Assembly: GCA_016208085.1 (NCBI GenBank)
Contig: JACQYT010000096.1
Coordinates: 1 to 14,372 of the forward strand
Reading direction: 5' to 3'
Length of the DNA: 14,372 nt
Source: Elusimicrobiota bacterium
Lineage (GTDB): Bacteria > Elusimicrobiota > Elusimicrobia > Elusimicrobiales > UBA9959
The position numbers were made by a program, and so were the translations under genes. Below, piece after piece: positions 1 through 14,372 of the stretch. A model generated the notes under the pieces. That model was not told the DNA's origin, did not search any database, and was given only the letters and a program-made list of their open reading frames with translations. Every line of letters begins with the position of its first letter. The stretch's first letter is position 1.

Positions 1-27
1 AGGTTTATCTAAGGGACTCCAGGGGAA

Positions 28-140
28 TTTTTAAAATGTCTCGTGTTGTCACTCTCACGAAAAAGCAAGAACTGATTTTGAGGGCCATAGATAAGAAACT
101 CATCAAGTTGTAATGAGTAAAAATCGCCCGGAATTCAGGT
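28..140. repeat. left copy of a ~110-bp imperfect inverted repeat; the right copy is at ~13650..13775 in reverse complement
   Basis: Hand alignment of 28-140 against the reverse complement of 13650-13775 gives about 78% identity across the small ORF. Similarity continues through the shared block aaatc(g/a)(c/g)gcggaattcaggt downstream of the stop codon. Confidence 0.5.
37..111 (+). CDS. small ORF, 25 aa (MSRVVTLTKKQELILRAIDKKLIKL), basic/amphipathic; has a diverged paralog at 13688..13765
   Basis: ATG at 37 and TAA at 109-111, followed immediately by TGA. A second inverted copy at 13688..13765 differs at 15 codons, 11 of them synonymous, which is the pattern expected under purifying selection on a coding sequence. 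The RVVTLT-KKQELILRAIDKK pattern resembles the beta-strand plus helix A of ribbon-helix-helix proteins, but the ORF is too short for a full fold. Confidence 0.4.
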
Positions 141-148
141 GTTATAAT
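140..148 (+). promoter_or_regulatory. extended -10 promoter element TGtTATAAT
   Basis: TGTTATAAT matches TGnTATAAT exactly. It lies about 180 nt upstream of the 326 ATG. The intervening 155-325 is GC-rich with several short hairpins (cccgc-acttca-gcggg, acccc-ttcc-ggggt, accgc-att-gcggt) and may be a structured leader. Confidence 0.3.
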
Positions 149-325
149 ATTCGTGTTCTGCCCGGTTGCGAGTTATTTATGCAAAACCCGGCAGACCCCG
201 CACTTCAGCGGGACCCCTTCCGGGGGTTTACCCACAGGTGGACACCGCATTGCGGTTTCCCCTACCTTTCAGAAAAAGCGCGGGGCGGGTCCGGGCCGCG
301 TTGCGCGCGGAGGGATTTAAGAGCA

Positions 326-885
326 TGCTTTTGGGAAAATTGTTATCGGGTTTAATGACCATCGTTCTTATATGGGGTCTGTATTCGCTGATGATAGCGT
401 TTTTTCCGGTTTTTTCCCGAAGTTGTTTCAGGACGGGCAGGCGGCTGCCCGGCCGCAGCCTGCTCAACGGCGGAGCGTTATTCGGCGGCTCCCTGGCCGT
501 CCTGTTCTGCCTGCTTTTTTTAACCCGCGGGGCCGGCGGCGTCGGCATCGGCGGGATATTCCTTATCTTCCAGATAGCCGGCCTGGCGGTGGGGCTTGTG
601 GCGCTGGGGGGATTGCTCGGGTTTATCGATACTGAAAAAAAACCGTACGGCGCGCTTGCATTGGGTATGGCGATGCTCTGGATCGTGCGGATGTTCTCTG
701 AAGGCGTTTCGAATATACTGTGCCTGCTGATAGGAATATACGGCGTCGGAGCTATAATCCTTTATTTCCGGGGGCAGGCTCCCGAAGCCCCGCGCTCGGA
801 AACGCTTACCGGCATGACGGCGCAGCCGCCTCCCGCGGCGGCGCCGGAACAGAAACCCGGGGCGCCGGAGAAAAAGTATCCCTGA
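326..885 (+). CDS. small integral membrane protein (about 5 predicted TM helices) with a Pro/Ala-rich C-terminal tail; function unknown
   Basis: The ORF track gives 166..885. The first 53 codons are Arg/Pro-rich and not protein-like. An internal ATG at 326 is preceded by GGAGGGA with a 9-nt spacer. The downstream protein is strongly hydrophobic with Gly-rich helices and ends PPPAAAPEQKPGAPEKKYP. Confidence 0.55.
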
Positions 886-909
886 GTTTATGGGCCGAGG
901 TGATTCTCT

Positions 910-1626
910 ATGATTTCTTTTACGACCGTCAGTGAAAAATTCAACCTGGACCTGGAGCCGAACTTCTCGGAATTGCTCGGCGATTATATTTTAAAGAAAT
1001 CAGGCACACAGGCATCCGCCGCCCAGCAGGATTGCATGTCGCGCCGGCTGAAATCCAATAAGCTTTCTTTGATTGGGTTGAAAGATTTGTTGGCCGGGCT
1101 GTCGGTAAAAGCGAGCTGGTGCGGAGAGCCGTCCCTGAAGCAGGGAGAACAGTTAAATCTTACTCATCTGGAGTCGCCGGATTGCGCCATGTCGCAGGGC
1201 TACACTCTTCTGAAAGCCATGTTCAATCAATTCGCGCCTAACGATATGTTCAGGGTCGCCTGGTCGTATATCGCGGAAGACGCCGAAAGAAAATACGGTG
1301 TTTTGTTCATCGAGAGACAGCGGGAGGAGCAAAAACAGGAAGAGAGCGCCATATATGAATTCTGGTCGTTTATTTATGTCAACTCACAGGACCGCATCAC
1401 GCACTACGCTCATCACCTGGATCATTTCGTGCTCGAGAAAAGTCTTCGGATGCAGCTCGTGTTTATGGGGTTCGGCAACACGGGAAACCTTATTGCACAA
1501 TGTAATCGGGATGCGAACCCGATGTTGATGTTCAAATTCAAGAACATCTTTAACAGCATTATCAATCCGCTTTATACATTCGTTCAGGACGGTCCCGGGC
1601 CGGGCGCTAACAGGACCGCGCCCTGA
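910..1626 (+). CDS. hypothetical cytoplasmic protein, 238 aa
   Basis: Long ORF with protein-like composition. GGTGA sits 6 nt upstream of the ATG. It follows the 885 stop after a 24-nt gap, so it is probably co-transcribed. No family recognised. Confidence 0.6.
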   Translation: MISFTTVSEKFNLDLEPNFSELLGDYILKKSGTQASAAQQDCMSRRLKSNKLSLIGLKDLLAGLSVKASWCGEPSLKQGEQLNLTHLESPDCAMSQGYTLLKAMFNQFAPNDMFRVAWSYIAEDAERKYGVLFIERQREEQKQEESAIYEFWSFIYVNSQDRITHYAHHLDHFVLEKSLRMQLVFMGFGNTGNLIAQCNRDANPMLMFKFKNIFNSIINPLYTFVQDGPGPGANRTAP

Positions 1627-1691
1627 TCGCGCGTGGGAGGCCGGCTGAAGCGCCACAAGGTCAATAATTCAACAGCCCGCCCCAGATTTAA

Positions 1692-1749
1692 AAAACCGTC
1701 CGCCTGACCTGCCTGCCGGTAGGCAGGGGCGGACGGTTTTCTTTTAACC
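1692..1749. terminator. bidirectional rho-independent terminator between convergent genes
   Basis: A 13-bp stem (aaaaccgtccgcc at 1692-1704 pairing with ggcggacggtttt at 1728-1740) encloses an inner 6-bp hairpin (cctgcc-ggta-ggcagg). It is followed by ttttctttt on the + strand and preceded by aaaaaa, which supplies the T-tract for the - strand. It sits between the 1626 stop and the 1773 stop. Confidence 0.7.
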
Positions 1750-1772
1750 GGGATTTTTGCCGCGCCGATTTT

Positions 1773-2495
1773 TTACTCCCGGCTGAAGCGTTCGTGGTAG
1801 GCGAAAATTATCGTGCCGCCTTTAAGCGTGTCTATCAGCTTTGTCCGCACCGACAGCTCTACGGCCGGGCAGCCCCAGCTGCGGCCGAGGGGAACTACGG
1901 AGGGGTTCACGTACTGCGCGCCGTGTATTACTATGGCGCGGGCCAAAGCGTTGCTGTTGGCGGAGCTGAGGCCGTGAAGCTTCAGCGAATAACCGTGCTG
2001 GCCGTCATAGGCGCTTCCGGTCCTGAAAAATCCGAGCGAAGTGGCGTGCGTGCCGTCATCATTTGAAAAGACAGTGGCGTAGCCTGTGTGCTTGGGGTCC
2101 GACCCCTTGCCGTGCGCTGCCAGGAACCGCTCCACGGCGCCGGTGCGCATATTGATGATATAAAATCTTTTGTTGTTCGCGTTTTGTGTGTAATCTATCA
2201 CCGACAGGTAGCCGGAATTGGGGATGCCGGCCAAGTTGGCCTTGTAATAACGCAGCGCCGCCGCCAGGGGCTTGGCCGGGACGATATGGCCGGGGTCCAC
2301 ATAGACGAATTCGTCTCCGGCGCGGGCTTCGGCGGCCGGGACGGGCGTTGCCGGCCCGGCCGGGCTTACCGCCGCGTCCAGGCTTTCGTAATTGCCGAGC
2401 AGGTCTTCCAGGGCGGAATTCTGCGCCGAGGCCGCGCCGCCAAAGCAAAGGGCCGCCAGGACCGCCGCCGAAGAGATTAGCAATTGCCTGTTCAT
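1773..2495 (-). CDS. secreted L,D-transpeptidase-like protein (YkuD-type catalytic motif H-x14-S-x-G-C)
   Basis: N-terminal signal peptide MNRQLLISSAAVLAALCFGGAASA-QN. The C-terminal half carries IHGAQYVNPSVVPLGRSWGCPAV, which fits the His...Ser-x-Gly-Cys active-site spacing of L,D-transpeptidase catalytic domains. Family assignment is by motif only. Confidence 0.55.
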   Translation of the reverse strand: MNRQLLISSAAVLAALCFGGAASAQNSALEDLLGNYESLDAAVSPAGPATPVPAAEARAGDEFVYVDPGHIVPAKPLAAALRYYKANLAGIPNSGYLSVIDYTQNANNKRFYIINMRTGAVERFLAAHGKGSDPKHTGYATVFSNDDGTHATSLGFFRTGSAYDGQHGYSLKLHGLSSANSNALARAIVIHGAQYVNPSVVPLGRSWGCPAVELSVRTKLIDTLKGGTIIFAYHERFSRE

Positions 2496-2729
2496 GAGAT
2501 ATTATTGCTGATGCGCGGCTTTCCGGCTAGTGTCAAAAGGTCCTGAATCCATTAGGCCCTTTAGCCCCCGGCAACATATAGATACACTACTTGTAATGGA
2601 GCTTTCCATTTCCCGGCGGTAAAAGACCGAAGGGCCCAGAAGGGCCTATGCCCGCGCCGGGAAATTAAGCGTTTATAAGGCCTAGCCGCGCGTAGGACAA
2701 AAAACTTCGGGAAAATGGGCTATTCGCCT

Positions 2730-2759
2730 CTGACGAAAATCCCGCCCGCGCGCTATACT
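2730..2759 (+). promoter_or_regulatory. candidate sigma70-type promoter (cTGACGa, 17-18 bp spacer, TATACT) giving a leaderless transcript for the 2766 gene
   Basis: TATACT at 2754-2759 ends 6 nt before the ATG at 2766. A TGACG -35-like hexamer lies 17-18 bp upstream. No Shine-Dalgarno (SD) sequence precedes the ATG. The same -10/6 nt/ATG geometry is seen at the toxin gene (6088). Confidence 0.35.
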
Positions 2760-2765
2760 ATTTGC

Positions 2766-5045
2766 ATGACGATCCTTAAACAGCTATCCAAACTCAGTTT
2801 GGCCGCAGTTTCACTCTCGCTTTTCTCCGCCTCCGGAGCAAAAGCCGCCGAGCTCTCTTTCGATGGAATGGACCGCGGGGCCGGCCTGGCCGCCGCGATG
2901 CAGGAACTGAAAGACCGGGCCGCAACCGGGGACGACAGCCGCGCCCCCGTTCCGTCCACCACCACCCAATCCAACGAGCTGACCAACTTTTTTGACCATC
3001 TCAAGGACGGCGCGCTGGACAGCCTCTGCAAAAAGGCGGAGATAAAGCTCAATAAAGACTTCAAACTCGTTGAGGTCATAGGCATAGACGGCGGGCTCAA
3101 GCGACGTCTTAAAGCTTTTCCCGACAAGCGGCTGGCCCTGCTGGACGAGATCAATCTTAAGCTCAGTGTCTCTTTCGGGACCGAAGTGCTGCAAGTGCCC
3201 AATGTCGGCTCTTTGAACATAGGTATAAGCGGCGGCGTGGAAGGCAAGTCGGTCGTCGTCCGCCCGCTGGACAGCACCAGGTACTGCAAGGAACTGGACA
3301 CCCTGATAAAGCTCTACGAGGTAAAGACCGTCCTTCCCGTAACCGCCAAGCGCATAAATAAGATGGAAAAGGGCGAGATCTGGAAGCTGCCAGTGACGGT
3401 CCACTACAGCATCAGCGCCGGAATAGGCACCATGATCAGCGAAGTGGTCAATGTCTCTATCGGGGCCGGCTATACCAGAGCGAAAAAGCCTTCCGTCAGC
3501 CTGTATAAGATGGATGAGAATAATTTAAGGCTGCGCCTGAGGCTGGACTATGTGAAGGTGAAAAGCGTCGGCGTCTCGGCCAACACGGTCGAGGTCCCGG
3601 TCGGCGACATAGGCCTGATCAGCGGTGAGAACCTGATAGCCACCACGGTCAACCGGGAACTGGCCAAAGAAATAAATAAGATGATAGCCTTCAAGTTGGC
3701 CTACAGCCATGCAATGACCAGCGGCCAGAAGCTGCTGCTTGAGTTCTACCTTGACCCCAATAACGCCGAACAGGTGGACAGGCTGGCGGAGTTTCTGCAG
3801 GGCGATTTCAACACTATCCGCAAGTTCATCGCGATGGGGCTGAAGTTCAACACCTTCTCCGAAGAGGCCAGCGGCCAGGCCGGCGTGGGCGAGATAGAGG
3901 AACTGGCGGACCAGGCCGGTTCCGAGCTGAACGCGACCTCCACTTTCGCCGGTTCCGACCACTATAACGGGAACAGCAATAACTTTAATATCAACATACC
4001 GGTCATACATAATCACCAGAACAGCTGGGCCTCCAGCTATCACCGCTACCAATCGCTTAACAACGACGGCGCCACCATCCATGTCCGGCAGCGGACCCGC
4101 GTCTCCAACGGCGATACAATCAACATCCCTTTAATCGGGACGGTGGTCAAGTATAATTCGCAGCAGCATATCTATGCGGTCAACAAGGAAGCCGCCGGCG
4201 GCGAAGTCTCAAGGCCCGTGCTGCTTTACCAGAAGTACGAAGGCTTTCTGCGGCAGGGCGATTCGACGGCACGCGGGATGATAGACGACGCCAATAACGT
4301 GCTGAAATACGCCGGCAGGCAGGGCAACGGCGTTGACATGAGCAACACACTTCCCTCGGCGGCTATCTTCCCGCCGCTGCCGCCCCAGGAATACACCAAT
4401 CAGAACAACGACTACATGCAATCCGACCCTGTAAAGACCTATAAAGCGGCCGTAATGTCCTTTAAGCTGGTATTCGCCCAAACAGCGGTGCAGGACATCA
4501 TCTTCGCGCCGGCCCAACTGATAATGAAATCCTTTATGAACGTGATGCGCGAGACCGAAGCCGCGATCATAGACAAGGTCATGGACCTGTTCACGATAAA
4601 TGAAAAGGGTAAAGTGGATTATGATTATAAGGCCGTGATCAAGCGCCTGGACGTGAGTCCATTCCCCGACAATAACAATAACGGCCAACCGACCCCGCTG
4701 GACATAGTCAGAAACCTGGCCTACGCGGCGACAAAGTTCATTGAAAGGATAGTCAGCGTCAGGGACGAATCCGACTTGAAAGCTCAGTCGGAGCGGCTGG
4801 CCAAGGTGGCCTCAAGCGGCGAGATGAAATACGAGGATTTCCTGAAAGTGGTCATCCAGATGGTGGATGTGAAGGATATTTCTTCCGAGATTTACATCCA
4901 CACCGACAAGCGCGTCAAGGACGAAGAGGACGTGACCCAGACCTACAGCATGTTCAACAACCGCGACAACGGCTTTGACAGCACAATAGCCGACGTGACC
5001 CAGATGCGGGAGCGCTTCAATGACCCCGGCGATCTGACGGACTGA
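2766..5045 (+). CDS. large secreted protein (759 aa) of unknown function, with amphipathic beta-hairpin-like segments
   Basis: Track ORF 2715..5045. The Met at 2766 begins a classical signal peptide (MTILKQLSKLSLAAVSLSLFSASGAKA-AE). There are no further hydrophobic helices. Segments such as VTVHYSISAGIGTMISEVVNVSIGAGYT alternate small/polar and hydrophobic residues. Asn-rich stretches and codon usage are visibly more A/T-rich than the neighbouring genes. Confidence 0.75.
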   Translation: MTILKQLSKLSLAAVSLSLFSASGAKAAELSFDGMDRGAGLAAAMQELKDRAATGDDSRAPVPSTTTQSNELTNFFDHLKDGALDSLCKKAEIKLNKDFKLVEVIGIDGGLKRRLKAFPDKRLALLDEINLKLSVSFGTEVLQVPNVGSLNIGISGGVEGKSVVVRPLDSTRYCKELDTLIKLYEVKTVLPVTAKRINKMEKGEIWKLPVTVHYSISAGIGTMISEVVNVSIGAGYTRAKKPSVSLYKMDENNLRLRLRLDYVKVKSVGVSANTVEVPVGDIGLISGENLIATTVNRELAKEINKMIAFKLAYSHAMTSGQKLLLEFYLDPNNAEQVDRLAEFLQGDFNTIRKFIAMGLKFNTFSEEASGQAGVGEIEELADQAGSELNATSTFAGSDHYNGNSNNFNINIPVIHNHQNSWASSYHRYQSLNNDGATIHVRQRTRVSNGDTINIPLIGTVVKYNSQQHIYAVNKEAAGGEVSRPVLLYQKYEGFLRQGDSTARGMIDDANNVLKYAGRQGNGVDMSNTLPSAAIFPPLPPQEYTNQNNDYMQSDPVKTYKAAVMSFKLVFAQTAVQDIIFAPAQLIMKSFMNVMRETEAAIIDKVMDLFTINEKGKVDYDYKAVIKRLDVSPFPDNNNNGQPTPLDIVRNLAYAATKFIERIVSVRDESDLKAQSERLAKVASSGEMKYEDFLKVVIQMVDVKDISSEIYIHTDKRVKDEEDVTQTYSMFNNRDNGFDSTIADVTQMRERFNDPGDLTD

Positions 5046-5080
5046 GGCGGCCAAGGTTTAAGGAAACGTCACGAAGTGAG

Positions 5081-5118
5081 CGCCCTCCGGGGGACCGGAG
5101 GGCGTTTTATTTGTGTTT
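5081..5118 (+). terminator. rho-independent terminator of the 2766..5045 gene
   Basis: A perfect 10-bp stem cgccctccgg (5081-5090) / ccggagggcg (5095-5104) with loop ggga, followed by ttttatttgtgttt. Confidence 0.85.
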
Positions 5119-5196
5119 CAAGCCAAAATCAACGCGACGTTATGCTGTCTGGGTGGTCTGATAGGATATTTGTGTGGATAATAGGAGGGATAAAAT

Positions 5197-5298
5197 ATGA
5201 CAAAGGATAAAAATATCAAGTCTTTTATGCCCGCTGAAGTGATTGAAAACAAGGGGGGAAAGGTAGCAGGCACCTTTTCTTTATCCTCCGGGCCTTAG
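5197..5298 (+). CDS. small ORF, 33 aa (MTKDKNIKSFMPAEVIENKGGKVAGTFSLSSGP)
   Basis: A GGAGG Shine-Dalgarno at 5184-5188 lies 8 nt upstream of the ATG at 5197. The stop TAG at 5296-5298 lies inside the left terminal repeat of the 5293..5451 element. No homolog recognised, and coding status is uncertain. Confidence 0.3.
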   Translation: MTKDKNIKSFMPAEVIENKGGKVAGTFSLSSGP

Positions 5299-5451
5299 GA
5301 GCCTCCGCAGAATAACTTGGACATCTGGAGGCACAGCCTTGAGTCGGATGCAAGGCGCGACGACGATAGTGTAGCAGCGCTACATTGAGGAGGAGCAACG
5401 CAGCAGCCGGCCAAAGATGTGCCTTCAAGTTATTCTGCGGAGGCTCCTTAG
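5293..5451. mobile_element. MITE-like element of 158 bp with 23-26-bp terminal inverted repeats
   Basis: Left arm aggagcctccgcagaataacttg (5297-5319) is the perfect reverse complement of the right arm caagttattctgcggaggctcct (5426-5448). The outer 3 nt match 2 of 3 (ctt against cta). The ~106-bp core has no long ORF and contains the short hairpin tgtagc-agc-gctaca. A degenerate second copy lies at 13531..13582. Confidence 0.5.
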
Positions 5452-5736
5452 CTCTATTATTAGCTTGCTTTTGACTGCCTGGGAAATCTCCCATAGGGTA
5501 TGGAGAGTGAGATTTTGCCCGCCCCGCTCTATCCGGGAGATAGTCTGCTGTTTCGTCCCCAGTTTCCTTGCCAGTTGAACCTGAGACATATGAGCGCGCT
5601 CGCGCGCCAAGGCAATCTGAACAGCTAAACGCGCTTCAATGTCCGCCTCTTCAAAGGCTTTCCGAAAACCGGGATCTTTTAGATCCTTTCTCAATACCTC
5701 GTTTAACGGAATCCCGGCTTGAATTTTTTTCTTCAT
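5425..5736 (-). CDS. higA: XRE-family helix-turn-helix antitoxin (HigA-like)
   Basis: Contains a canonical HTH (MSQVQLARKLGTKQQTISRIERGGQNLTLHTL). It starts 4 nt after the toxin stop (TAA-cgat-ATG), in the usual toxin-then-antitoxin hig order. The last 9 codons (ELRSLRRIT) are encoded by the right terminal repeat of the MITE-like element. Confidence 0.8.
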   Translation of the reverse strand: MKKKIQAGIPLNEVLRKDLKDPGFRKAFEEADIEARLAVQIALARERAHMSQVQLARKLGTKQQTISRIERGGQNLTLHTLWEISQAVKSKLIIELRSLRRIT

Positions 5737-5740
5737 ATCG

Positions 5741-6088
5741 TTAGTCCCCCTTCCTTCTTAACCAGTTCGCGAATGTCCGCTTGGAACGTTCAATCTCGGA
5801 CTTCGGCGCCACCTGCGTCTTCTTCAAGAAAGCATTGGTTATCAAAATTGTTTTACCACAAATCACATAAAGAAACCGGTGTTGATGATGCTCTATCGCA
5901 GGGCGAAGCTCACGGACATTCCTTTCCAACACATCGGCATAAGGCCTTGGTAAATTCGGTCCGTACTCCTGTAATAATGTAAGCCATTTCTTTGCTTTCG
6001 CCTCATGTTTTCTATTTAGGCTTTTAAGATAGTCTAAAGGCTGGCTGCATCCGTTTTCGTCCTGGTAGAATACGACTGTATAATCCAT
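5741..6088 (-). CDS. higB: RelE/ParE-superfamily toxin of the Gp49/HigB type (phage-related-protein family)
   Basis: The protein MDYTVVFYQDENGCSQPLDYLKSL...RELRP...HRFLYVICGKTILITNAFLKKTQVAPKSEIERSKRTF matches the Gp49-like HigB toxin pattern. The track ORF starts 6 codons upstream (6106), but those codons contain the -10 box. The start was placed at 6088 so the mRNA is leaderless. Confidence 0.8.
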   Translation of the reverse strand: MDYTVVFYQDENGCSQPLDYLKSLNRKHEAKAKKWLTLLQEYGPNLPRPYADVLERNVRELRPAIEHHQHRFLYVICGKTILITNAFLKKTQVAPKSEIERSKRTFANWLRRKGD

Positions 6089-6094
6089 AATATT

Positions 6095-6123
6095 AGTATA
6101 CAGCATATACGCTGTTTTGTCAA
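6095..6123 (-). promoter_or_regulatory. near-consensus sigma70 promoter (TTGACA, 17 bp spacer, TATACT) for higBA with a leaderless start
   Basis: Read on the minus strand: TTGACA (6123-6118), a 17-nt spacer, then TATACT (6100-6095). The -10 ends 6 nt before the ATG at 6088, so transcription is predicted to start at or next to the start codon. Confidence 0.6.
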
Positions 6124-6514
6124 GGGGGAAAGCAGGCGCCTTTTCCGGGTGTCTTTTTCCGCAGTGGAACTTCGTGATTATAAGTTGGCTGCGACCTTGG
6201 GGGTGGGGATGGATTTATCATCTGGGTTGGAATAAATATACAAAAAATAGCTGACCAAAAGGCCAGCCGGGGGGCGGCGGGGGTTTGCTGGTGCACGCCT
6301 TTCCGGCTTTCGGCCAAACTGTTGGAGCGAACCGCTATCATTCGGCGGCGGCGAGGACCGTATGTTCAAGCCGTCCGCCTAAAGCGGACGGCACGTTCCA
6401 CAGCCGGCGGAAACGGCTTGGCCGCTTCCCCATAAAGCCGGTCCCGGCGTGCGAGCGGCAAAACCCCGCCGGCACCCCGACCAATTATACAATAAGCGTT
6501 AGTATTGGAAAAAA

Positions 6515-7579
6515 TCAGTGTTTTATCTTTGAGTCCACGCCGAAGATGTGGGAGATCAGGGCGGCCCGGGCCCACATGCCGTTGCGCTCCTGGCGCCAGA
6601 AAACGGCGCGCGGGTCTTCGTCCACCGAAACCTCTATCTCGTGGCGCCGCGGGAGCGGGTGCATGATAACGCAGGTCTTCTTAATGACCTTTAGATGTTC
6701 ATGTTTGAAATAAAAAGGGGAATAATCCACTTTTTTTGACTCGCCGGACTTGTCGTGCTCGTCCTGGATGCGGGTCATGTAAATAGCGTCCGCGCCGTCC
6801 ATCACCGATGAAAAATCCCCGGTCTCGGTATACGGCATCTTGTGCCGCTTTAAAAACTCCAGGATGTCCTGTTCCATCCGGAACTGCTCCGGGGACACGA
6901 AGGCCAGCTTTATGTTCTTATAGTTTTTCATCAGGTAAGTGAGCGAACGTACGGTTCTGCCGCGCTTTAAATCTCCGACCATCACTATCGTTTTATTGTC
7001 CATCTCGCCGTTAAAACTCCTGTAAAGCGTGTAGGTGTCAAGCAACGCCTGGGTCGGGTGCTGGTCCTTGCCCGAGCCGCCGTTTATGATCGGCACCGGC
7101 CTGTTGGTGCGGTTCATCAACCAGGCCGTTTTCTCCACGAAACCGGGCGCCGGATGCCGCATGATTATTAGGTCGACGTAGCTTGAGAACGTGCGCACGG
7201 TGTCCTCGGGGCTTTCGCCCTTCACTTCGGAGGAAGTGGAGGTGTCGCGTATCTCGGAGATCTTTATCCCCAGGATATGACAGGCGTTCAGAAAAGAAAG
7301 GAAAGTTCTGGTGGACGGCTGGACGAAATAAAGCATCGCCCGCCTGTCGGACAAAAGGTTGGAGACGAAGTCCATGCCTTCTTTATGCTGCGTCAGCGTC
7401 CTTAAAGCCTCGGCCGTCTTAAAAAGATTGGTCAGGATCTCGCGGTTGAACTGCTGGGCGAAAAGGCAGTCGTAAAGACGGCCCTCTTTGGCGAAAAAAG
7501 GCAACTTTTCCGAGATTTCTTTTGAGTAAAACTCGTCCCAATTGGCGTTTATGCTGGTCATCACCGGGGTTCTTTCCAT
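6515..7579 (-). CDS. aspartate/ornithine carbamoyltransferase-family protein of the ATCase type, divergent, with an N-terminal extension of about 45 aa
   Basis: Carries the signature motifs STRTF (canonical is STRTR), HPTQ, HPLP (ATCase-type; OTCases have HCLP) and YMTRIQDEH (canonical is TRxQxER). It is the last gene of the flotillin operon. The start at 7579 is preferred over 7561, with a weak AAGGCGG SD. Confidence 0.75.
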   Translation of the reverse strand: MERTPVMTSINANWDEFYSKEISEKLPFFAKEGRLYDCLFAQQFNREILTNLFKTAEALRTLTQHKEGMDFVSNLLSDRRAMLYFVQPSTRTFLSFLNACHILGIKISEIRDTSTSSEVKGESPEDTVRTFSSYVDLIIMRHPAPGFVEKTAWLMNRTNRPVPIINGGSGKDQHPTQALLDTYTLYRSFNGEMDNKTIVMVGDLKRGRTVRSLTYLMKNYKNIKLAFVSPEQFRMEQDILEFLKRHKMPYTETGDFSSVMDGADAIYMTRIQDEHDKSGESKKVDYSPFYFKHEHLKVIKKTCVIMHPLPRRHEIEVSVDEDPRAVFWRQERNGMWARAALISHIFGVDSKIKH

Positions 7580-7627
7580 TTTACCGCCTTGTGCGTTATC
7601 CCTCGCCGACCCTGTGCCGGGAAAAAG

Positions 7628-8242
7628 TCAGTTGGAAGCGTCCTGTTCCGGAAGCGGCGGCGGGGGGATGGTCCGGGGCATAGCGACGGCGCCCGCCGCG
7701 CCGGGGCCGCTGTCCCAGCCACCGGGCTTTTCCACTAGGTCCACCAGCCTCAGGTTCCCCAGGCCGTCCACTTTGACCCGCGCGACGAATTTGCCGCTGT
7801 TCCAGTTCTTCCGCTGGTCGTCCTCGCTGACGAAATATTTTTCTATGCCGTAGCGCAGCTGGGGGCCGCCCCAGCGGCCCTGCCTTTGGCCGCGGACCCA
7901 GAGCTTCCCGTCGGAGGCCGGCTTTTCCTCCGCGCAGGCCTGGGACCCGTACACCGGTAATTCCTGTCCGCCCGCGCTGACCGTCCTGCCCGTCGGCGAC
8001 AGGTGCACGTGGACGGGGTCTTTCCGTTCCGCCAGGACCCTTTCGCAATTGGTTCCCTTCGGGGTGGCGATTTCGTACCTGAGCGCCAGGTAGGTGCCGC
8101 TCAGCAGGTCCCGCGGATCCACCGGGAGCGTGTCCAGGCAGAACTCGGCCACGGACCGGGACGAGAAAGAGAAAAGCCAGCCGGCCCAGGCGACGAAGAA
8201 AGCGAGCTGCAGGATGATCACGAGGCGGAGCTTGTTATTCAT
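7628..8242 (-). CDS. GDYXXLXY-domain membrane-anchored protein
   Basis: An N-terminal TM helix is followed by VDPRDLLSGTYLALRYEI, which matches the DPRDLLRGDYxxLRY core of the GDYXXLXY family. AGGAGG lies just upstream. The start overlaps the upstream gene's stop by 8 nt. Confidence 0.7.
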   Translation of the reverse strand: MNNKLRLVIILQLAFFVAWAGWLFSFSSRSVAEFCLDTLPVDPRDLLSGTYLALRYEIATPKGTNCERVLAERKDPVHVHLSPTGRTVSAGGQELPVYGSQACAEEKPASDGKLWVRGQRQGRWGGPQLRYGIEKYFVSEDDQRKNWNSGKFVARVKVDGLGNLRLVDLVEKPGGWDSGPGAAGAVAMPRTIPPPPLPEQDASN

Positions 8243-9587
8243 GCTGCCTCCTGGCGTTGGCGGCTTCTATCAGCGATTTTCGTGTTTTGTTCAGGAAATA
8301 AGCCAGGGCGCCCAGCACCAGCCCGCTGACGATGAAAGCCATGCCGGTCTTCATCAGCGTTCCGAAGATATCCATGAACCGGGTGATGATGATAAGAAAG
8401 ATGACGGCGACCCCGCCGTTGATGCGTTTCTCGTCCGATTCCATCGAGCCGGAAACGATCAGGCCGAGCCCCGAGAGGATGATAAGAGCATTCGCTATAA
8501 CCGCTATAGGCTTGGCCCCGGCCTCGGTGGCTCCGAACATCAAGAAGGCGGAGACCATCGAGATGAGCAGCAGGGCTTTGGCCGCCCAGTCTGCGGTCTT
8601 TCCGCTCCCTCCGGCTTTGACCGGCCTTAACACCGTCAGGGCCACGGCCACGGCGAAAATGATCAAGGCCGCGACGACTCCGGAGGGGGAATCCTCCCCG
8701 CGCGGCGCATAGGAAGGCTTGTAGTGCCAGAAGAACGTCATGCCGTAGACCACGGCGAACCAGGCGAGCATGGGCAGTCGCCCCGGCCCTTCGCCGATGG
8801 AGCTGATGCCCAGCCACAGTACCGTCAGCGACGCGGCCGCCAGCAGAATGAACGCCGGGCTGTGCAGCTGGAAGAAGGTGGGGCTCACCAGCGCTATGAA
8901 GAGCCATATCAGCGTTCCGCCAGCGACCCTGTCGCGCCAGGCGAAGGCCTTGAGGCGCGCGAAATATACCCAGAACAGCGCGCAGAATACGAGAAGCACG
9001 GCCAGCCAATGCGTCCAGGGAAAAGCAAAGTCCCCGGAAGTGAACCGCCACTCGACCAGCGAGAACATATTGTTCGGCCGGAAAGCCCCGAAGTAAGCCA
9101 CGCCGAGGAGCAGGACCATAGACAGCGCCGCTGCGATCCTGCGCCCGGTGAAGAAGGCCAGCGGCAGGGAAATCAGCGCCCAGGCGGCGAACGGCTTGAC
9201 CGGGTCGCCGGAGAGCTGGAATACCTGCGCGTAGAGGCCTATGCCGATGGGTGGCATGAAGAACCAGATCACCTCGGCCGGGATGCCGACCGCGGGCTTG
9301 TCCTCCCAGCGTATCGCCGCCTCGGCGACGGCGGCGTAGGCCGCCAGGAAAACCGCTACCTTCGCGATAGCGCCTATCTTGTCCCAGTTGTGCGCGATTA
9401 TAAGGGAGAGGCCGCCGGCGATGAAAATGCCGGCTATGATGCTTATCCAGTGCGCCGCTTTGAACGAGGCGAACAGGCGCTGCGCGTAGATGTTTTCATA
9501 CAGCGCGTCCGCTTGCTGCGGGGTTATAGTCCCCGATGCGGCGGCCGCCGCGAGGTCCCGCTTAAGGCGCTTGTAATAGGAGGCCAT
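8235..9587 (-). CDS. polytopic membrane protein of the DUF2157 type (likely with a fused DUF4401-like region)
   Basis: The N-terminus (MASYYKRLKRDL...TITPQQADALYENI followed by a TM-rich region with NWDKIG) resembles the DUF2157 family, which is typically encoded next to GDYXXLXY proteins. It has at least 10 predicted TM helices. Assigned from recalled family features, with no search run. Confidence 0.65.
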   Translation of the reverse strand: MASYYKRLKRDLAAAAASGTITPQQADALYENIYAQRLFASFKAAHWISIIAGIFIAGGLSLIIAHNWDKIGAIAKVAVFLAAYAAVAEAAIRWEDKPAVGIPAEVIWFFMPPIGIGLYAQVFQLSGDPVKPFAAWALISLPLAFFTGRRIAAALSMVLLLGVAYFGAFRPNNMFSLVEWRFTSGDFAFPWTHWLAVLLVFCALFWVYFARLKAFAWRDRVAGGTLIWLFIALVSPTFFQLHSPAFILLAAASLTVLWLGISSIGEGPGRLPMLAWFAVVYGMTFFWHYKPSYAPRGEDSPSGVVAALIIFAVAVALTVLRPVKAGGSGKTADWAAKALLLISMVSAFLMFGATEAGAKPIAVIANALIILSGLGLIVSGSMESDEKRINGGVAVIFLIIITRFMDIFGTLMKTGMAFIVSGLVLGALAYFLNKTRKSLIEAANARRQHE

Positions 9588-9598
9588 TCAACTCGTCC

Positions 9599-11668
9599 CT
9601 ATTTCTTCTTCGTATCGTCGTCCCTGACGATCTTCATGCCGCCGGTCATCAGGCTGCCTATGAAAGCGGAAAGCATATTATTGCCGCCGCCGTCCGCGCC
9701 GCTGTTCACCACGACGTCCGGGGTTATCTTCACCTTGCCGTTGGAAACCTGTTTCATCACTTCTATCACGGACATCGGGGCCTGCCCGAGCGCCAGCGCC
9801 TGTTTGGTGTAGGCTTCAGCGGTCGCCTGCCCGATGGCGCGTATCTTTTCGCCCTCGGCCCGGCCTACGGCTTCAATGCCGGCGGCTATGCCTTCCTGCT
9901 CAAGCTTCGTGCTCTGCCCTTTGCCCTCGGCCAGGGTTATGGACTGCTGCTTCTGCTGGGTCGCTATCTGCACGTCTATCTCCGCCCTCACGAGATTGGG
10001 CTGCAAATCCGCCTGGGCTTTGGTCTTTTCCATTTCTTTGCGGCGGCCCTCGGCTTCCTGCTGCGCGTCGAACATGGATTTTTGCTGGGTGGCGACCACC
10101 TTGTTGGTCAGCGTCTGCATCAGCCTTTCCGGCAGCTTTATCTGGCAGATCAGCACGCTGACGCATTCCACGTAATATTTTTCAAGCTCCTCCATTATAT
10201 GCTGCTCGGCCTTACGCTGCTGCTCGTGACGGTCCTGCATGAACATCATCGCCTCGGAAGAGGAGGCCTGGTTTCTGAACGAACTGTCCACCAGCGGGTG
10301 AATGACCGCCTCTATCAGGTTGTTGATGGTGCCGATCCTGGCCACCATGTGCGGCGCCTGCTGCGGCTGGACCCGCAGTATGACCTTTACTTCCACGGTC
10401 ATCTCAAAACCGTCTTTTGAGACGATGGCCAGCGGGTCGAAAACCATCGGCACCCGCGTATCCGACTTCTGCTCCGCCCAGTCTATCGTGATGTTGGTGG
10501 TGGGGATTATATGCGGAGTGAAGGCCAGCTTGTTCAGATAATAGGTGCCGGGGCCCAGCACTTCGCGCTGTATGCCGCGGTAGCCCGGCTCCACCACATA
10601 ACGCTCCACGCCGACCTTTATCGGGTCCGGGGAGCCCGGCTGGGGTTTCGGAAGAATCGAAATCGGGTCCTTGCCGACGTTGGAAACTATTACCGCCACC
10701 TCGCCACGCTGCACCATCAGCACGTCGTCTAAGGTTGCGTCGAACATCAGCGGGTTTATATAGAAAGTGCCTGGCTTCAGGAAGTCAAACTGCGGGCCGC
10801 GCTGGCCGGCGTTGGCAAGAAAGGCCGCCGAATCCTGGAATTCGCCGGTGTTGCTGACGCTCCTGGCCACGTATTCGCCCAGCGGCAGTTGTTCGCCGTC
10901 GCGGGCGGTGACCAGCCCCACTTTTTTGGTCGGGATCACGGTGGCGTCTTTTATGACGACGTTGAACAGTTTTGAGTTTATCCGGTAGGAGCCCGGCAAA
11001 AGGATATCTATCTGCGGACCCTTCTGCCCGCCGTTCTCAAGGAAGGCCTGGCCGTTCTGGAAATTATCATGCCCCGCCGTTTTCTTGCCCAGCAGCCGCC
11101 CCGGGGCTATGGGCTGGCCGTCGGTTGCCACGGCTACGCCTATCTGGTTGTTCGGGATCCTGATTATCGGGGCCTTTGCCACTTTGAAAAGGTAAGGGTT
11201 GATCCTGTAAAGCCCGGGCGGCAGCAACTGGACCTGGGGACCCTTGTTCCCGCCGTTCCGCAGGAAGACCTCGCCTTCCTGGAAGAGATCGTGTCCTTCA
11301 ATAACCCCGCCGAAGATCTTTCCCGGGGCTACCGGCAGGCCGTCTATGGATTCCACGAGGCCCACTTCGTTCTCGCCGATAGTCGTCATCGGATGTTTTT
11401 CAACGCGGTAAAGGAAAGGGATCAGCAGGTGAAGGCCCGGCGGCAGGATCCTGGCCTGTATGCCGACTTCGTCCGGCATGGCGGCCACGCGGCCGCGGGG
11501 CATATTCTTTCCCAGCCAGCGCCGCTCTAAAACGGCAATCTGCGCTCCGCCCACCACGACGAAAGCGTTATAAAGAATGATAAAGACAAATAATATAAGG
11601 AATGCGGCCAGTATGGTCGTGCCCCCGCTGGCATTCAGTGCGTCCAGCAGCGCGGAAATATTGAGCAT
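9599..11668 (-). CDS. SPFH/Band-7 flotillin-family protein (YqiK-like), 689 aa, with internal tandem ~75-aa repeats
   Basis: N-terminal TM anchor. Four tandem repeats share G..D.FQ.G..FL.N.G..GPQ...L.PG.YRIN..LF. The C-terminus is an Ala/Glu/Lys/Gln-rich coiled coil (AEGEKIRAIGQATAEAYTKQALALGQ) typical of flotillins. A GGAGG SD lies 6 nt upstream of the ATG. Confidence 0.85.
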   Translation of the reverse strand: MLNISALLDALNASGGTTILAAFLILFVFIILYNAFVVVGGAQIAVLERRWLGKNMPRGRVAAMPDEVGIQARILPPGLHLLIPFLYRVEKHPMTTIGENEVGLVESIDGLPVAPGKIFGGVIEGHDLFQEGEVFLRNGGNKGPQVQLLPPGLYRINPYLFKVAKAPIIRIPNNQIGVAVATDGQPIAPGRLLGKKTAGHDNFQNGQAFLENGGQKGPQIDILLPGSYRINSKLFNVVIKDATVIPTKKVGLVTARDGEQLPLGEYVARSVSNTGEFQDSAAFLANAGQRGPQFDFLKPGTFYINPLMFDATLDDVLMVQRGEVAVIVSNVGKDPISILPKPQPGSPDPIKVGVERYVVEPGYRGIQREVLGPGTYYLNKLAFTPHIIPTTNITIDWAEQKSDTRVPMVFDPLAIVSKDGFEMTVEVKVILRVQPQQAPHMVARIGTINNLIEAVIHPLVDSSFRNQASSSEAMMFMQDRHEQQRKAEQHIMEELEKYYVECVSVLICQIKLPERLMQTLTNKVVATQQKSMFDAQQEAEGRRKEMEKTKAQADLQPNLVRAEIDVQIATQQKQQSITLAEGKGQSTKLEQEGIAAGIEAVGRAEGEKIRAIGQATAEAYTKQALALGQAPMSVIEVMKQVSNGKVKITPDVVVNSGADGGGNNMLSAFIGSLMTGGMKIVRDDDTKKK

Positions 11669-11747
11669 AAGAACCTCCGTTACCCCGAAAATACCGCTGA
11701 ACTTATTCTAGCTTATTTTACCCCCCGGAATAAAAATCCTTTTTAGA

Positions 11748-11776
11748 TTGTTCTGGGCGGGGATGTTTTATAGAAT
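11748..11776 (+). promoter_or_regulatory. candidate promoter (TTGTTC, 17 bp spacer, TAGAAT) for a leaderless 11785 gene
   Basis: TAGAAT at 11771-11776 ends 8 nt before the ATG at 11785, and a TTGTTC -35-like hexamer lies 17 bp upstream. No SD. It is located in the divergent intergenic region shared with the flotillin operon. Confidence 0.3.
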
Positions 11777-11784
11777 CTAACTGG

Positions 11785-13536
11785 ATGAAAGGCCTTATTC
11801 AGGACAAAGTTTCAAAGGTGTTTATTTTCGCGGGCGCGGCGCTGGCGGTGTCGGCGGTTTTTCTGCCGGTGATAAACCCGGACCTGTTCTGGCACCTGTC
11901 GGCGGGCCGGTATATGTTTGAACATCTCGCCGTGCCGCGCGCCGATTTTCTTTCCTGGACGATGCACGGCCGCCCCTGGCTGGATTTTGAGTGGCTGGCC
12001 CAGCTTATCTACTACGGGCTGTTCCTGAAAGGGGGGATGGCGGCGCTTTTCGCGTTCAAGGCCCTCATTCTGGCCCTCGCTGTTTTCGCGTTTTTTAAAA
12101 TAATAAAACTTCACCGGTCCGAAGATTCCGCTTTTTTTCTGCTGCCGTTATTCGCGGCCGGCCTTGTGACCAATTCCGACCTGCGGCCGGAGAACTTTTC
12201 AGTGCTGTTCTTCGTCCTGGTTTTCCGGCGGCTTGAGGTGATAAGGCTTAACCCATCTTACAGGCCGTTCGCCGCGGAACTGGCCTGGGCCGCGGCATTT
12301 TTCGCTTTCTGGACGAACCTGCACGCCGGGTACCTTTACGGCGCCGTACTTATAGCGTTTTATGCGGCCGGAAGTTTTTTTGAGGAAGCGCTGCCTTTCA
12401 TATACGGCCATAAATCCCGTATCCCCTTAGGCAAATGGGCGCAGTACCTTAAACTCCTGGCAGCGGGGGGCGCCGCAAGCCTGATAAACCCGTACGGGGC
12501 GCGGCTCTATGAGGTCATAGCCAATCACCTGCGGTACACAGACGTCCTGCAGGAATATATACAGGAATGGAAGCCGTTCGATCTGACCAATATCTACCAG
12601 TGGCCCTACCTGGCGCTTATGGGGCTGGCTTTCGGCCTGACGCTTTACAGGTTCTTAAAGACCAGGACCATGGTCTACGAGCATCTTATCGCGCTGCTGT
12701 TCTTTGCTTATTTCTCCTCAAATCACGCGCGCCACACGCCGTTTTTCTCGGTCACCGCGGCCGTCTGCCTGGCTGCGCTGCCGCTCTCCGCCGTTATGCG
12801 CCCCGTCCTTCGGGTGGTTTTTAAAATCTCCGTCATAGCCGTTTTCGCCGTTTATTACAGGACTTTTGTCTGGAGCCAGTATTCCGGCGTCGCGCGGTTC
12901 AATAATTATTCCGAAGGCCTGGCCGGATTTCTGCGGCACAACGCCGACCGCCTGGCCGGGCTTAAGATGTTCAACTACTGGGGCTGGGGCGGCTACCTCG
13001 GCTTCGCGCTTTCTCCACGGTACAGGGTGTTCGCGGACGGCAGATATATTTTCCACGAGTTTCTGGAAGAAATGGAAAATTCCCGGAACAGTCCGTCGGT
13101 CTGGGAAAATTTCAATCGCAAGTACGGCTTTGAGCTGATGGTGCTGAACAGGGATAAGACCAAAATAACGGTCAAACAGCGCCTTAAAAGCGGCCGCGAA
13201 ATAATTTCCCGGCGTCCCGCCTATCTCTTTTACCTGCCCAAAAAAGACTGGGCGGTCGTCTATTGGGATATAAAGACCCTCGTCCTGGTGAAGCGGGACG
13301 CCGCGGACGCGGCCTGGCTGGCCGGCAATGAATATAAGGTATTAAGACCGGACGACATGAACAATGTCGCGGCCGCCGCGCTTGACGGCGAGATAAGAAT
13401 GGGCGAGATAAACGGGGAAGCGCAAAGGTTAATGGGCCGGGCCGACGCCCCCGGACCGGCAAAGAACTATCTGGCGGACTGGCTGAAGCTTCTGGAAAAT
13501 CTCTGCAAGGAAAAGAACGCCAAATGCAAACCTTAG
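11785..13536 (+). CDS. polytopic integral membrane protein; GT-C-fold glycosyltransferase-like by inference
   Basis: 583 aa with about 10 TM helices in the N-terminal two-thirds and a soluble C-terminal domain. The first extracytoplasmic loop carries NPDLFWHLSAGRYM...DFLSWT..GRPWLDFEWL, an Asp-containing aromatic motif typical of GT-C enzymes. The specific family was not identified. Confidence 0.7.
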   Translation: MKGLIQDKVSKVFIFAGAALAVSAVFLPVINPDLFWHLSAGRYMFEHLAVPRADFLSWTMHGRPWLDFEWLAQLIYYGLFLKGGMAALFAFKALILALAVFAFFKIIKLHRSEDSAFFLLPLFAAGLVTNSDLRPENFSVLFFVLVFRRLEVIRLNPSYRPFAAELAWAAAFFAFWTNLHAGYLYGAVLIAFYAAGSFFEEALPFIYGHKSRIPLGKWAQYLKLLAAGGAASLINPYGARLYEVIANHLRYTDVLQEYIQEWKPFDLTNIYQWPYLALMGLAFGLTLYRFLKTRTMVYEHLIALLFFAYFSSNHARHTPFFSVTAAVCLAALPLSAVMRPVLRVVFKISVIAVFAVYYRTFVWSQYSGVARFNNYSEGLAGFLRHNADRLAGLKMFNYWGWGGYLGFALSPRYRVFADGRYIFHEFLEEMENSRNSPSVWENFNRKYGFELMVLNRDKTKITVKQRLKSGREIISRRPAYLFYLPKKDWAVVYWDIKTLVLVKRDAADAAWLAGNEYKVLRPDDMNNVAAAALDGEIRMGEINGEAQRLMGRADAPGPAKNYLADWLKLLENLCKEKNAKCKP

Positions 13537-13582
13537 GAGCCTCCGCATACTTTGTGTCAGAAAAATTCTTCGGAGGTTTGCC
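13531..13582. repeat. degenerate short copy of the 5293..5451 element's terminal repeats
   Basis: ccttaggagcctccgca (13531-13547) is identical to 5293-5309. An attcttcggaggtttgcc segment (13565-13582) resembles the right-arm sequence attctgcggaggctcct. The TAG stop of the upstream gene lies within the repeat in this copy, and the same is true for the 5197..5298 ORF and the repeat at 5293. Confidence 0.4.
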
Positions 13583-13649
13583 GAAAGAATGTCAAAATAG
13601 CCGCGCACTACCCTGGGCGAAATGCCGGCTTCCCTGGCCACATTGGCGT

Positions 13650-13775
13650 AATTACCTGAATTCCGCCTGATTTGTGTACACAACACTTTACAATTTCAGC
13701 AACTTCTTGTCGATGGTCTTCAAAATTAGTTCCTGTTTTTTTGTGAGCGTTACAACACGAGACAGTGTGAAACCT
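13650..13775. repeat. right, reverse-complement copy of the window-terminal inverted repeat (partner of 28..140)
   Basis: See feature 28..140. The copy contains the second small ORF. Confidence 0.5.
13688..13765 (-). CDS. second copy of the small ORF (LSRVVTLTKKQELILKTIDKKLLKL), with CTG in place of ATG
   Basis: Identical length and a conserved stop position relative to 37..111. Divergence is dominated by synonymous third-position changes (non-synonymous changes: R to K, A to T, I to L). The start codon is CTG in this copy, so expression is uncertain. Confidence 0.3.
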   Translation of the reverse strand: MSRVVTLTKKQELILKTIDKKLLKL

Positions 13776-14250
13776 TTTTTAAAATCCCGCAGGCAACAGG
13801 ATCCGGCGACAGATAATGCGGGGGAAGAAGGCCGGAAACCATAATATTTTCCAGGCTGAAGCCTTCCGTTTCCATGTGGGCCTTTCAGGATGAAGTTCGA
13901 ACCTACTTCGCGCAACATCCCGAGGAAACTTTATAAATTCCGCTTTTCCGGTCGTTCCCCGCGCTCCAGGGCGATTACCGCGAGATGCCGCACGGTCCGC
14001 AGGCTCGCCCACTCGCCGGCCCATTGGTGGGCCGGCTCCGGGCTCGCTCTGCTCCAGCGGAAACAGAGTTGTTTTTCATCTCATCACCCCCGGTTGCGCG
14101 GCCGGTTGGTCCCAACAGGCCTTCCCCGCCCGCTCCCGGCTTCGCCGTATAAATCGGAAAATTATCGCCCGCGCCCACTACAAAAAAAAGATCACAAAGA
14201 CTTCAGAATTGTTGTCATATAAGTTCAGGCTTAGGAATTTCAATGTTTGC

Positions 14251-14323
14251 TGTAGCGGTCGCATTCATGCGACGAATTTGTGCGATAAATCGCACCGCTA
14301 CAAAAGTTGCCCCCGAAGGGGGC
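14251..14323 (+). ncRNA. candidate small structured RNA or protein-binding palindrome, followed by a GC hairpin
   Basis: A 9-bp outer stem (tgtagcggt at 14251-14259 pairing with accgctaca at 14294-14302) encloses two similar hairpins, gtcgca-ttca-tgcgac and gtgcga-taaa-tcgcac. A 6-bp GC hairpin gcccccgaagggggc (14309-14323) follows. The unit is flanked by direct repeats TAGGAATTTC at 14232-14241 and 14338-14347. Strand is undetermined because the structure is near-palindromic. Confidence 0.3.
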
Positions 14324-14372
14324 CTAATTTAATACTATAGGAATTTCCTTTTTTGACAGTCGTAAGCCGTAA

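Follow-up and report, generated by a model that had tools for sequence, protein, structure and literature searches.

The gene considered here lies on contig JACQYT010000096.1 of an Elusimicrobiota bacterium (GenBank assembly GCA_016208085.1), of which positions 1 to 14,372 of the forward strand were analysed (14,372 nucleotides; hereafter the window). Its coding sequence (2766–5045, + strand) specifies 759 amino acids plus stop and is the founding member here of an Elusimicrobia-specific family of exported proteins that we call T. That T represents a new family in an understudied phylum is well-supported, and its helical elaboration and its association with phospholipases are unusual for a barrel-like envelope protein. 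The explanation that we prefer, tentatively and with somewhat less than even confidence, is that T is a lineage-specific outer-membrane channel-like protein that works together with secreted hydrolases. A preliminary description of the gene, made from the sequence alone, had portrayed a secreted, beta-rich protein rather than a housekeeping enzyme, and the predicted export and the predicted beta-meander both bear this out.

An exported protein family of the Elusimicrobia

A word-indexed search retrieved 79 full-length relatives of about 750 residues, 27–100% identical to T and all annotated as 'hypothetical', with no genuine Pfam domain in any of them. When 1.84 billion representatives were searched exhaustively with a profile, 182 clusters (at 50% identity) were obtained with E ≤ 1e-3, 125 of them with E ≤ 1e-30; the full-length profile matches mostly form a single block across most of the profile, and those distant members that carry names are again Elusimicrobia. 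When one genome per GTDB species was scanned, 59 T loci were found. Those with a phylum-level label belong to the Elusimicrobia, Elusimicrobiales or Elusimicrobiaceae, save for one 1.9-kb contig binned as Sideroxydans, which we read as mis-binned; a few loci are labelled only 'bacterium'. Between two and five T paralogues occur per metagenome-assembled genome (MAG), including tandem duplicates and paralogues of 30% identity within one locus. The protein encoded in the window is identical to the MAG protein HY796_10690 of an Elusimicrobia bacterium, whose contig of 14,372 bp the window covers completely. A search for a homologue in Elusimicrobium minutum returned MAG proteins only and none from a cultured strain.

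Against Pfam, T has no match at E ≤ 1 other than a spurious one to NADPH_Ox, and 52 divergent members likewise have none; sequence and profile searches of NCBIfam, PHROGs, PADLOC and the PDB with T and its family gave no match either, and a survey of the literature on envelope, pore-forming or phospholipase proteins of Elusimicrobia found nothing relevant. By the measure of these searches, the T family is outside every described family. The most divergent subfamily (loci L061–L065, about 23% identity) sits in a context of its own, consisting of a small unknown gene, an ankyrin-repeat protein, T, a DegT-type aminotransferase, a family 4 glycosyltransferase (GT4) and a carboxyltransferase, that is, a neighbourhood of the cell-envelope glycan type and not of the phospholipase type.

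The open reading frame extends from 2715 to 5045 on the + strand, and the ATG at 2766 gives the product of 759 residues. This start is correct because the homologues begin with the same M-x3-K followed by a signal peptide; the reading frame of the preliminary description is real. By a heuristic call, residues 1–27 (2766–2846, +) form a Sec signal peptide with its three regions, MTILKQLSKLSLAAVSLSLFSASGAKA|AELSFDG: the n-region is basic, the h-region lacks charges, and an A-x-A site provides for a predicted signal peptidase I cut after AKA. The signal peptide is conserved in the family, and T is predicted to be exported by Sec. Elsewhere in the protein the highest 19-residue Kyte–Doolittle mean is 1.37, which is below transmembrane level. 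Both the signal peptide and the lack of further transmembrane helices had been noted before and are upheld here. The same applies to the Asn-rich regions, which map to residues 401–412 (NGNSNNFNINIP) and 635–642 (DNNNNGQP; nucleotides 4668–4691).

Predicted fold and membrane embedding

An AlphaFold2 model of T, built from a 48-sequence alignment, reaches a mean predicted local distance difference test (pLDDT) score of 73.6 and a predicted template modelling (pTM) score of 0.74, and it contains 13–15 long strands. Residues 1–58 are disordered (pLDDT <50), and the flexible mature N-terminus (residues 28–60; 2847–2945, +), with its conserved A[DE]xSFDG motif and short helix, is followed by a PVPST linker (residues 61–66). 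Residues 70–97 form two short helices, which include C88. The beta-meander proper occupies residues 109–570 (3090–4475, +) and comprises 13 long antiparallel strands in nearest-neighbour order, the long strands measuring 13–22 residues each between residues 111 and 570. Helical inserts interrupt it at residues 168–204 (which contains C174), 275–309, 330–391 and 499–557. C88 and C174 are invariant in the family and probably form a disulfide. About 250 residues of T are helical and amphipathic, while a polar, two-faced part of the sheet (residues 392–498) is modelled with high pLDDT. The C-terminal, mostly helical domain (residues 572–759; 4479–5042, +; pLDDT mostly 80–93) ends in a conserved tail, F751-x2-P754-x2-L757-x-D759.

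The order of the strands was also read from coevolution, using mean-field direct coupling analysis of the strand columns (234 family members, effective number 169, zero-sum gauge) with couplings summed along antiparallel registers and a noise floor of about z 3–3.5. The 12 sequential antiparallel strand pairings s1-s2-...-s14 emerged as the top ladders (z 3.5–5.8), with strands '5' and '6' acting as one bulged strand. Two C-terminal strands may continue the sheet (s14–s15, z 3.2; s15–s16, z 3.6). Amphipathic, hairpin-like segments had been suspected from the sequence, and the Gly/Ser-rich one at residues 210–237 (VTVHYSISAGIGTMISEVVNVSIGAGYT; 3393–3476, +) is indeed a beta-hairpin in the model; the hairpin strands, 205–224 and 228–250, pair in the register i+j=452 with z 5.2–5.5.

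Foldseek comparison of the T model with the PDB gave meaningless matches only, with template modelling (TM) scores of 0.1–0.2. The best structural hits by name are CymA (PDB 4d5b, 14 strands), TamA/BamA barrels, TonB-dependent receptors and porins, outer-membrane barrels being the only structural relatives of the meander, and since the 237 aligned residues correspond to about all strand residues, the whole sheet is read as one barrel-like meander. On the model, T is predicted to fold as an all-next-neighbour antiparallel meander of 13–15 strands with barrel-like curvature. The folds that the preliminary description had in mind, aerolysin/ETX-MTX2 or MACPF/CDC, did not materialize: Pfam has no such match, and the MACPF/CDC protein perfringolysin O (1m3i) surfaces as a junk hit with a Foldseek E of 0.074, a probability of 0.04 and TM scores of 0.06–0.08.

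Unrolling of the sheet with the coevolution registers reveals two different faces. One consists to 47% of large hydrophobic residues; the other consists to 37% of Gly, Ala, Ser and Thr and carries a conserved charged cluster in which R255, R257, R259 and E326 are invariant and K322 is nearly invariant. The three arginines belong to the segment NLRLRLRLD (residues 253–261; 3522–3548, +), which presents them on one sheet face and its leucines on the other; R255 and R257 are still at least 90% conserved among distant members, and R255 lies opposite E326 at the coevolution register. The dyad pattern together with the small-residue concave face is porin-like. At the end of strand 14, just before the helical domain, SFKLVF (residues 565–570; 4458–4475, +) has nearly invariant F566 and L568, and we infer from F566-x-L568-x-F570 a candidate internal beta-signal.

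A number of features weigh against the notion that this sheet is a classical lipid-exposed barrel. A continuous lipid-facing hydrophobic belt of about 9–11 residues on all strands was not found, a result that is not final given that the registers are noisy. In its best putative belt the hydrophobic face has 52% large hydrophobic and 18% charged residues; it bears the invariant R113 and D127 and the nearly invariant R166, and a basic stripe divides it into two patches. Along strands 123–329 the hydrophobic stretches exceed the length of a membrane belt and would fit packing against helices too; on strands 392–453 the belt is essentially absent, strands 392–475 being polar on both faces. Long helical inserts are located at both ends of the sheet. 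Coevolution gives an odd number of strands, 13 or, if the C-terminal two are added, 15, where an even number is usual for outer-membrane barrels, and closure contacts between s1 and s14, s15 or s16 gave no signal (z ≤1.9; for s1–s14 ≤1.6), although at a noise floor of about 3–3.5 this does not prove an open sheet. The C-terminus, ...RFNDPGDLTD, has no terminal aromatic residue; neither Pfam nor NCBIfam contains a match to an outer-membrane protein (OMP), porin, FadL or Omp85 family, not even a weak one; and the T copy in the window has no phospholipase neighbour. The features contrary to a belt would fit equally well a soluble protein in which the hydrophobic face is covered by helices.

Association with secreted phospholipases

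The genomic neighbours of T were compared by clustering the open reading frames of 66 loci. Besides pyrB, the recurrent tight neighbours are secreted hydrolases only, and a gene for a phospholipase C (PLC)-like protein, a phospholipase D (PLD) or a PAP2 protein is found within two genes of T in 16 of 59 cases. The PLC-like family c3 lies 68–86 bp downstream of T, on the same strand, in four loci of the subfamily of about 30% identity, and it also adjoins other T subfamilies; family c34, a secreted phospholipase D (PLDc_2, E 3.9e-52), follows T at 24–79 bp, again on the same strand, in three loci; and family c26 is a secreted PAP2 phosphatase (E 2.2e-9). Other neighbours include phosphatases resembling protein tyrosine phosphatases, a hydrolase of the metallo-beta-lactamase fold and peptidases of the clostripain, papain, M14 and trypsin types. 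The link between T and phospholipases is probably functional, because T genes of different subfamilies are partnered with phospholipases of two unrelated families, and the phospholipase operons of the T paralogues point to a lipid-related role in the envelope. A role at a membrane or surface, as proposed in the preliminary description, is still the best guess, whereas the acquisition that was part of the same proposal did not stand (see below).

Family c3 is confined to Elusimicrobia and consists of secreted proteins of 374–470 residues (P0227–P0286, e.g. L001:8296–9612, L027:2160–3284 and L022:4655–5905). Its AlphaFold model (pLDDT 84, pTM 0.80) has as its best Foldseek match the C. perfringens alpha-toxin (1ca1 and 2wxu; E 2e-5 and 1e-4, probability 1.0, full length), with which it shares the architecture of a zinc-dependent phospholipase C/alpha-toxin, a helical N-domain followed by a C-terminal beta-sandwich. 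It differs from alpha-toxin in having only 12% identity and a global TM score of 0.3–0.36, which we ascribe to a differing orientation of the domains. The Pfam family Zn_dep_PLPC (PF00882) was undetected in c3 even at E 10, and other sequence methods found nothing either; the assignment as a phospholipase C is therefore one of fold only. Invariant Trp, His, Asp and Glu residues and an H-x3-D-x5-H spacing are present; their assignment to the nine metal ligands of the family is putative, and the later ligand spacing differs from that of alpha-toxin. Zinc phospholipases C have an N-terminal Trp. In the short forms of c3, signal-peptide cleavage at ACA|W would expose such a residue, and in the long forms the conserved Trp is preceded by a possible propeptide of about 40 residues. 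Poly-Asn low-complexity loops occur both in T (DNNNNGQP) and in the PLC-like neighbour P0227 (PPNNNNNSHGNNNQP, at about residues 264–277); in both families these regions are poorly conserved and of low confidence.

A mature N-terminus of the form [DE]-F-[DEGN] is common to T (2847–2945) and to unrelated secreted neighbours, namely PLC-like and clostripain-like proteins and several unknown families (e.g. L001:15570–16928, L009:1347–2735, L022:3675–4562 and L030:14276–15070). A short helix and a Pro/Val/Ala-rich linker come after it in the examples that were read. Of 162 signal-peptide families, 27 have the motif, compared with about 10 in shifted control windows, and it could be a lineage-specific propeptide or a sorting tag. 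A more far-reaching reading, which we regard as unlikely, would make T an undescribed, Elusimicrobia-specific class of outer-membrane or membrane-inserting, beta-barrel-like component dedicated to secreted phospholipases and other hydrolases, one that either exports them as cargoes across the outer membrane or imports their lipid or organophosphate products, with [DE]-F-[DEGN] and the Pro-rich module, which many of the cargoes share, serving as the sorting tag of a new secretion or uptake system that has a conserved leaderless promoter as well.

If T is the channel-like protein that we tentatively prefer, its parts could be placed as follows. The meander would form, or close into, an outer-membrane channel, with the small-residue face and its R255, R257, R259, E326 and K322 lining the lumen. 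The N-terminal helices would plug this lumen, an arrangement that would reconcile the invariant pair C88–C174 with the topology, while the helical domain at the C-terminus would reside in the periplasm. Most likely such a channel would admit the products of the hydrolases, phosphorylated head groups or lipid fragments, with anionic organophosphates, for example, passing the Arg cluster; less likely, it would export the enzymes.

The soluble alternative, which is the main rival, can also be worded in terms of the phospholipases. Here T would be a soluble, exported protein, whether periplasmic, surface-attached or secreted, and a membrane- or lipid-active partner of these enzymes, acting as a lipid extractor, a presenter or a pore-forming partner; its hydrophobic face and amphipathic helices would enclose or bind a lipid, or they would rearrange to let the amphipathic hairpins enter the membrane of a target. 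What survives of the earlier pore-former idea is in essence this alternative, and we judge it possible though rather doubtful. In its favour, T genes stand in operon-like pairs with genes for PLD and for a PLC resembling alpha-toxin, and pairings of a pore former with a phospholipase C are familiar from perfringolysin/alpha-toxin and from listeriolysin/PlcA-PlcB. Also in its favour are, on the side of structure, the Gly/Ser-rich amphipathic hairpin 210–237, the roughly 250 residues of amphipathic helix, the lack of a coevolution signal for barrel closure, the two-faced polar sheet 392–498 with its high pLDDT, and a hydrophobic face that is long, divided into two patches and set with conserved charges as in a protein core. 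By contrast, accessory toxins are not typically syntenic and present in multiple copies as this family is, many T genes, among them that of the window, lie far from any phospholipase gene, and a 13-strand nearest-neighbour meander is not known as the architecture of soluble pore-former precursors.

Tight adjacency to PLC-like and PLD genes would also be expected of a periplasmic immunity or chaperone protein that guards the membranes of the producer against its own exported phospholipases, comparable to the Tli immunity proteins of phospholipase effectors, with orphan copies such as that of the window being retained. T is exported and occurs in tandem and as multiple paralogues per genome, which agrees with this idea. 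We nevertheless hold it to be very improbable: the best-conserved subfamily, which is the one beside pyrB, mostly lacks a phospholipase partner; T has a strong promoter and terminator of its own; and one inhibitor fold would be needed for two unrelated enzyme families. Moreover, known immunity proteins are small, unlike a protein of 759 residues that is strongly conserved over its full length.

Expression signals, locus and known systems

T appears to be transcribed from a promoter of its own, and upstream of the gene a conserved element (TGGGCTATTCGCCTCTGACGAAAA; 2716–2739, +) contains the −35-like hexamer CTGACG (2730–2735). The −10 hexamer TATACT (2754–2759, +) ends 6 nt before the ATG, which implies a leaderless transcript; the promoter is sigma-70-like, CTGACG-18-TATACT, ending at 2759, and a Shine–Dalgarno sequence is absent. 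TATACT or a one-mismatch variant is found exactly 6 nt before the ATG in orthologues of 40–100% identity, and where gene calls begin too far upstream the same motif is visible in translation as a conserved '(R/L)YTIxM'. The fetched loci, 1.03 Mb in all, contain TATACT-N6-ATG 24 times, compared with about 8 that we estimate for uniform base frequencies, and 19 of the 24 are family gene starts. The leaderless promoter, which had been proposed for the window gene before, is strongly supported by this conservation across homologous genes.

The element TGGGCnnTTnGCCnCTnAnnAAAA (2716–2739 in the window) keeps a constant distance upstream of most orthologues of 40–100% identity. It overlaps the −35 region of the T promoters in the window and at the equivalent positions of L007–L039, and it could be an extended promoter of an unusual kind or the binding site of a regulator. 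A sigma-54 reading of the upstream GG...GC element was discarded by inspection, as its spacing is wrong. Downstream, the strong terminator of the preliminary description is located at 5078–5117 (+), an intrinsic terminator with a 13-bp stem of which 9 pairs are G-C, followed by a T-run. Together, the conserved leaderless promoter and this terminator predict that T is a monocistronic unit. Scans of the window for Rfam families and tRNAs gave no matches.

The gene is not of deviant composition. It had been described as more A/T-rich in codon usage than its neighbours, a claim that does not hold: its GC content at third codon positions (GC3) is 0.75, against 0.76 for ykuD, 0.735 for pyrB and 0.76 for the SPFH gene, and its overall GC of 55.1% compares with a window mean of 55.7%. 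The GC slightly below that of the immediate neighbours is due to the Asn- and Lys-rich amino acid content (6.7% Asn and 7.1% Lys) and not to codon choice. The gene order is likewise conserved and runs T, pyrB (aspartate carbamoyltransferase, TIGR00670), GDYXXLXY, DUF2157, an SPFH protein and a 583-residue membrane protein. Among the fetched loci, 13 contain pyrB, with a median distance to T of about 400 bp, and several of these keep the remaining order too, one of them with a T of only 43% identity. In comparison with the syntenic genomes, the window has a low-GC HigB(Gp49)/helix-turn-helix (HTH) toxin–antitoxin pair inserted between T and pyrB (5425–6106, −), made up of a HigB/Gp49-like toxin gene (5741–6106, −) and an HTH/XRE antitoxin gene (5425–5736, −) in a low-GC region of about 5500–6250. 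On this evidence the mobile element is the toxin–antitoxin neighbour and not T.

These data bear on the original proposal that T is an acquired effector, such as an adhesin or a beta-pore-forming toxin gained by horizontal transfer, to which we now give hardly any credence. A secreted, beta-rich protein with amphipathic hairpins and Asn-rich loops, adjoined by a mobile-looking HigB/HTH module, would suit such an effector. However, GC and GC3 are typical, the synteny is conserved and the toxin–antitoxin module is the actual insertion, the family is limited to one lineage with 2–5 paralogues per genome, and a toxin or adhesin Pfam domain or toxin-fold match is absent. The acquisition of T is contradicted by the same typical composition, pyrB synteny, Elusimicrobia-only occurrence and multiple copies. 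Homologues that are lineage-restricted, syntenic and multi-copy come close to the conserved lineage genes that the preliminary description had itself named as speaking against its view. Judged from composition, synteny and distribution, T is a vertically inherited lineage gene and not an acquired toxin.

The divergent neighbour of T encodes a secreted YkuD_2 L,D-transpeptidase (1773–2495, −; Pfam E 6.9e-47). Its identity in the preliminary description was right, whereas its pairing with T is limited to the three closest genomes, those of the window, L007 and L008; T and the transpeptidase are probably not functionally coupled, as the adjacency is not conserved beyond close relatives. The pair had relevance for the idea that T is a structural envelope protein, a major component of the outer membrane or of a surface layer, tethered to peptidoglycan through its mature N-terminus, possibly by an L,D-transpeptidase, in the manner of the N-terminally linked beta-barrel proteins of Brucella. 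A conserved mature N-terminus with a disordered Pro-rich linker, the divergent secreted YkuD_2 gene, strong monocistronic expression signals and multiple copies in one lineage would all suit a tethered protein. We consider it improbable all the same, given that the adjacency to the transpeptidase goes no further than the three closest genomes, that [DE]F[DEGN] is also found in soluble secreted enzymes such as the PLC-like proteins, where the region looks like a propeptide ahead of the Trp that is N-terminal in short forms, and that a peptidoglycan-binding domain was undetected in Pfam scans of T and 52 divergent members.

Other features of the locus are recorded here for completeness. The toxin gene also has a TATACT-N6-ATG (6086–6100, −), which suggests an internal leaderless start and a 115-residue product. 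In the vicinity of T paralogues, genes for XRE-type HTH proteins (family c9, DUF4423-like) are found repeatedly, and those of L032 and L041 also have leaderless starts of the form TATACT-N6-ATG. The GDYXXLXY and DUF2157 membrane-protein genes (7628–9587, −) overlap by 8 nt and are kept beside pyrB in L006, L016, L021 and L039. The SPFH/Band-7 protein of the window has 689 residues (9599–11668), and the polytopic membrane protein of 583 residues (11785–13536) is without a Pfam match. Two mutually dissimilar open reading frames of about 239 residues (166–885, + and 910–1626, +) have neither a Pfam, NCBIfam or PHROG match nor a homologue in the other fetched loci.

The Elusimicrobia are a poorly studied and mostly uncultured phylum whose envelope proteins are essentially undescribed. 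That a conserved, exported and multi-copy protein of about 750 residues lies outside the curated families implies that current annotation misses what such lineages possess in outer-membrane or membrane-active proteins. The operon pairing with PLC and PLD suggests the attack or scavenging of phospholipids, possibly for the acquisition of phosphate or lipid from other cells, while the leaderless promoter and the shared N-terminal motif offer starting points for the study of how this phylum expresses its genes and sorts its proteins. Even if T should turn out to be merely a lineage-specific porin, a gap in annotation is filled.

Two kinds of known system invite comparison. With beta-pore-forming toxins (aerolysin/ETX-MTX2, alpha-haemolysin and MACPF/CDC) T shares export, a Gly/Ser-rich hairpin and a PLC-like genomic partner; it differs from them as a syntenic, multi-copy lineage gene and in the absence of a Pfam match. 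From outer-membrane beta-barrels T differs in that it has no sequence or profile similarity to OMP families, about 250 inserted helical residues and a 190-residue helical C-terminal domain, four or five strands that are polar on both faces, and invariant charged residues on the 'outer' face. What it has in common with outer-membrane beta-barrel channels is the Sec signal peptide, the next-neighbour meander of 13–15 strands and the dyad faces, as well as its standing as a lineage-specific, multi-copy gene next to secreted hydrolases.

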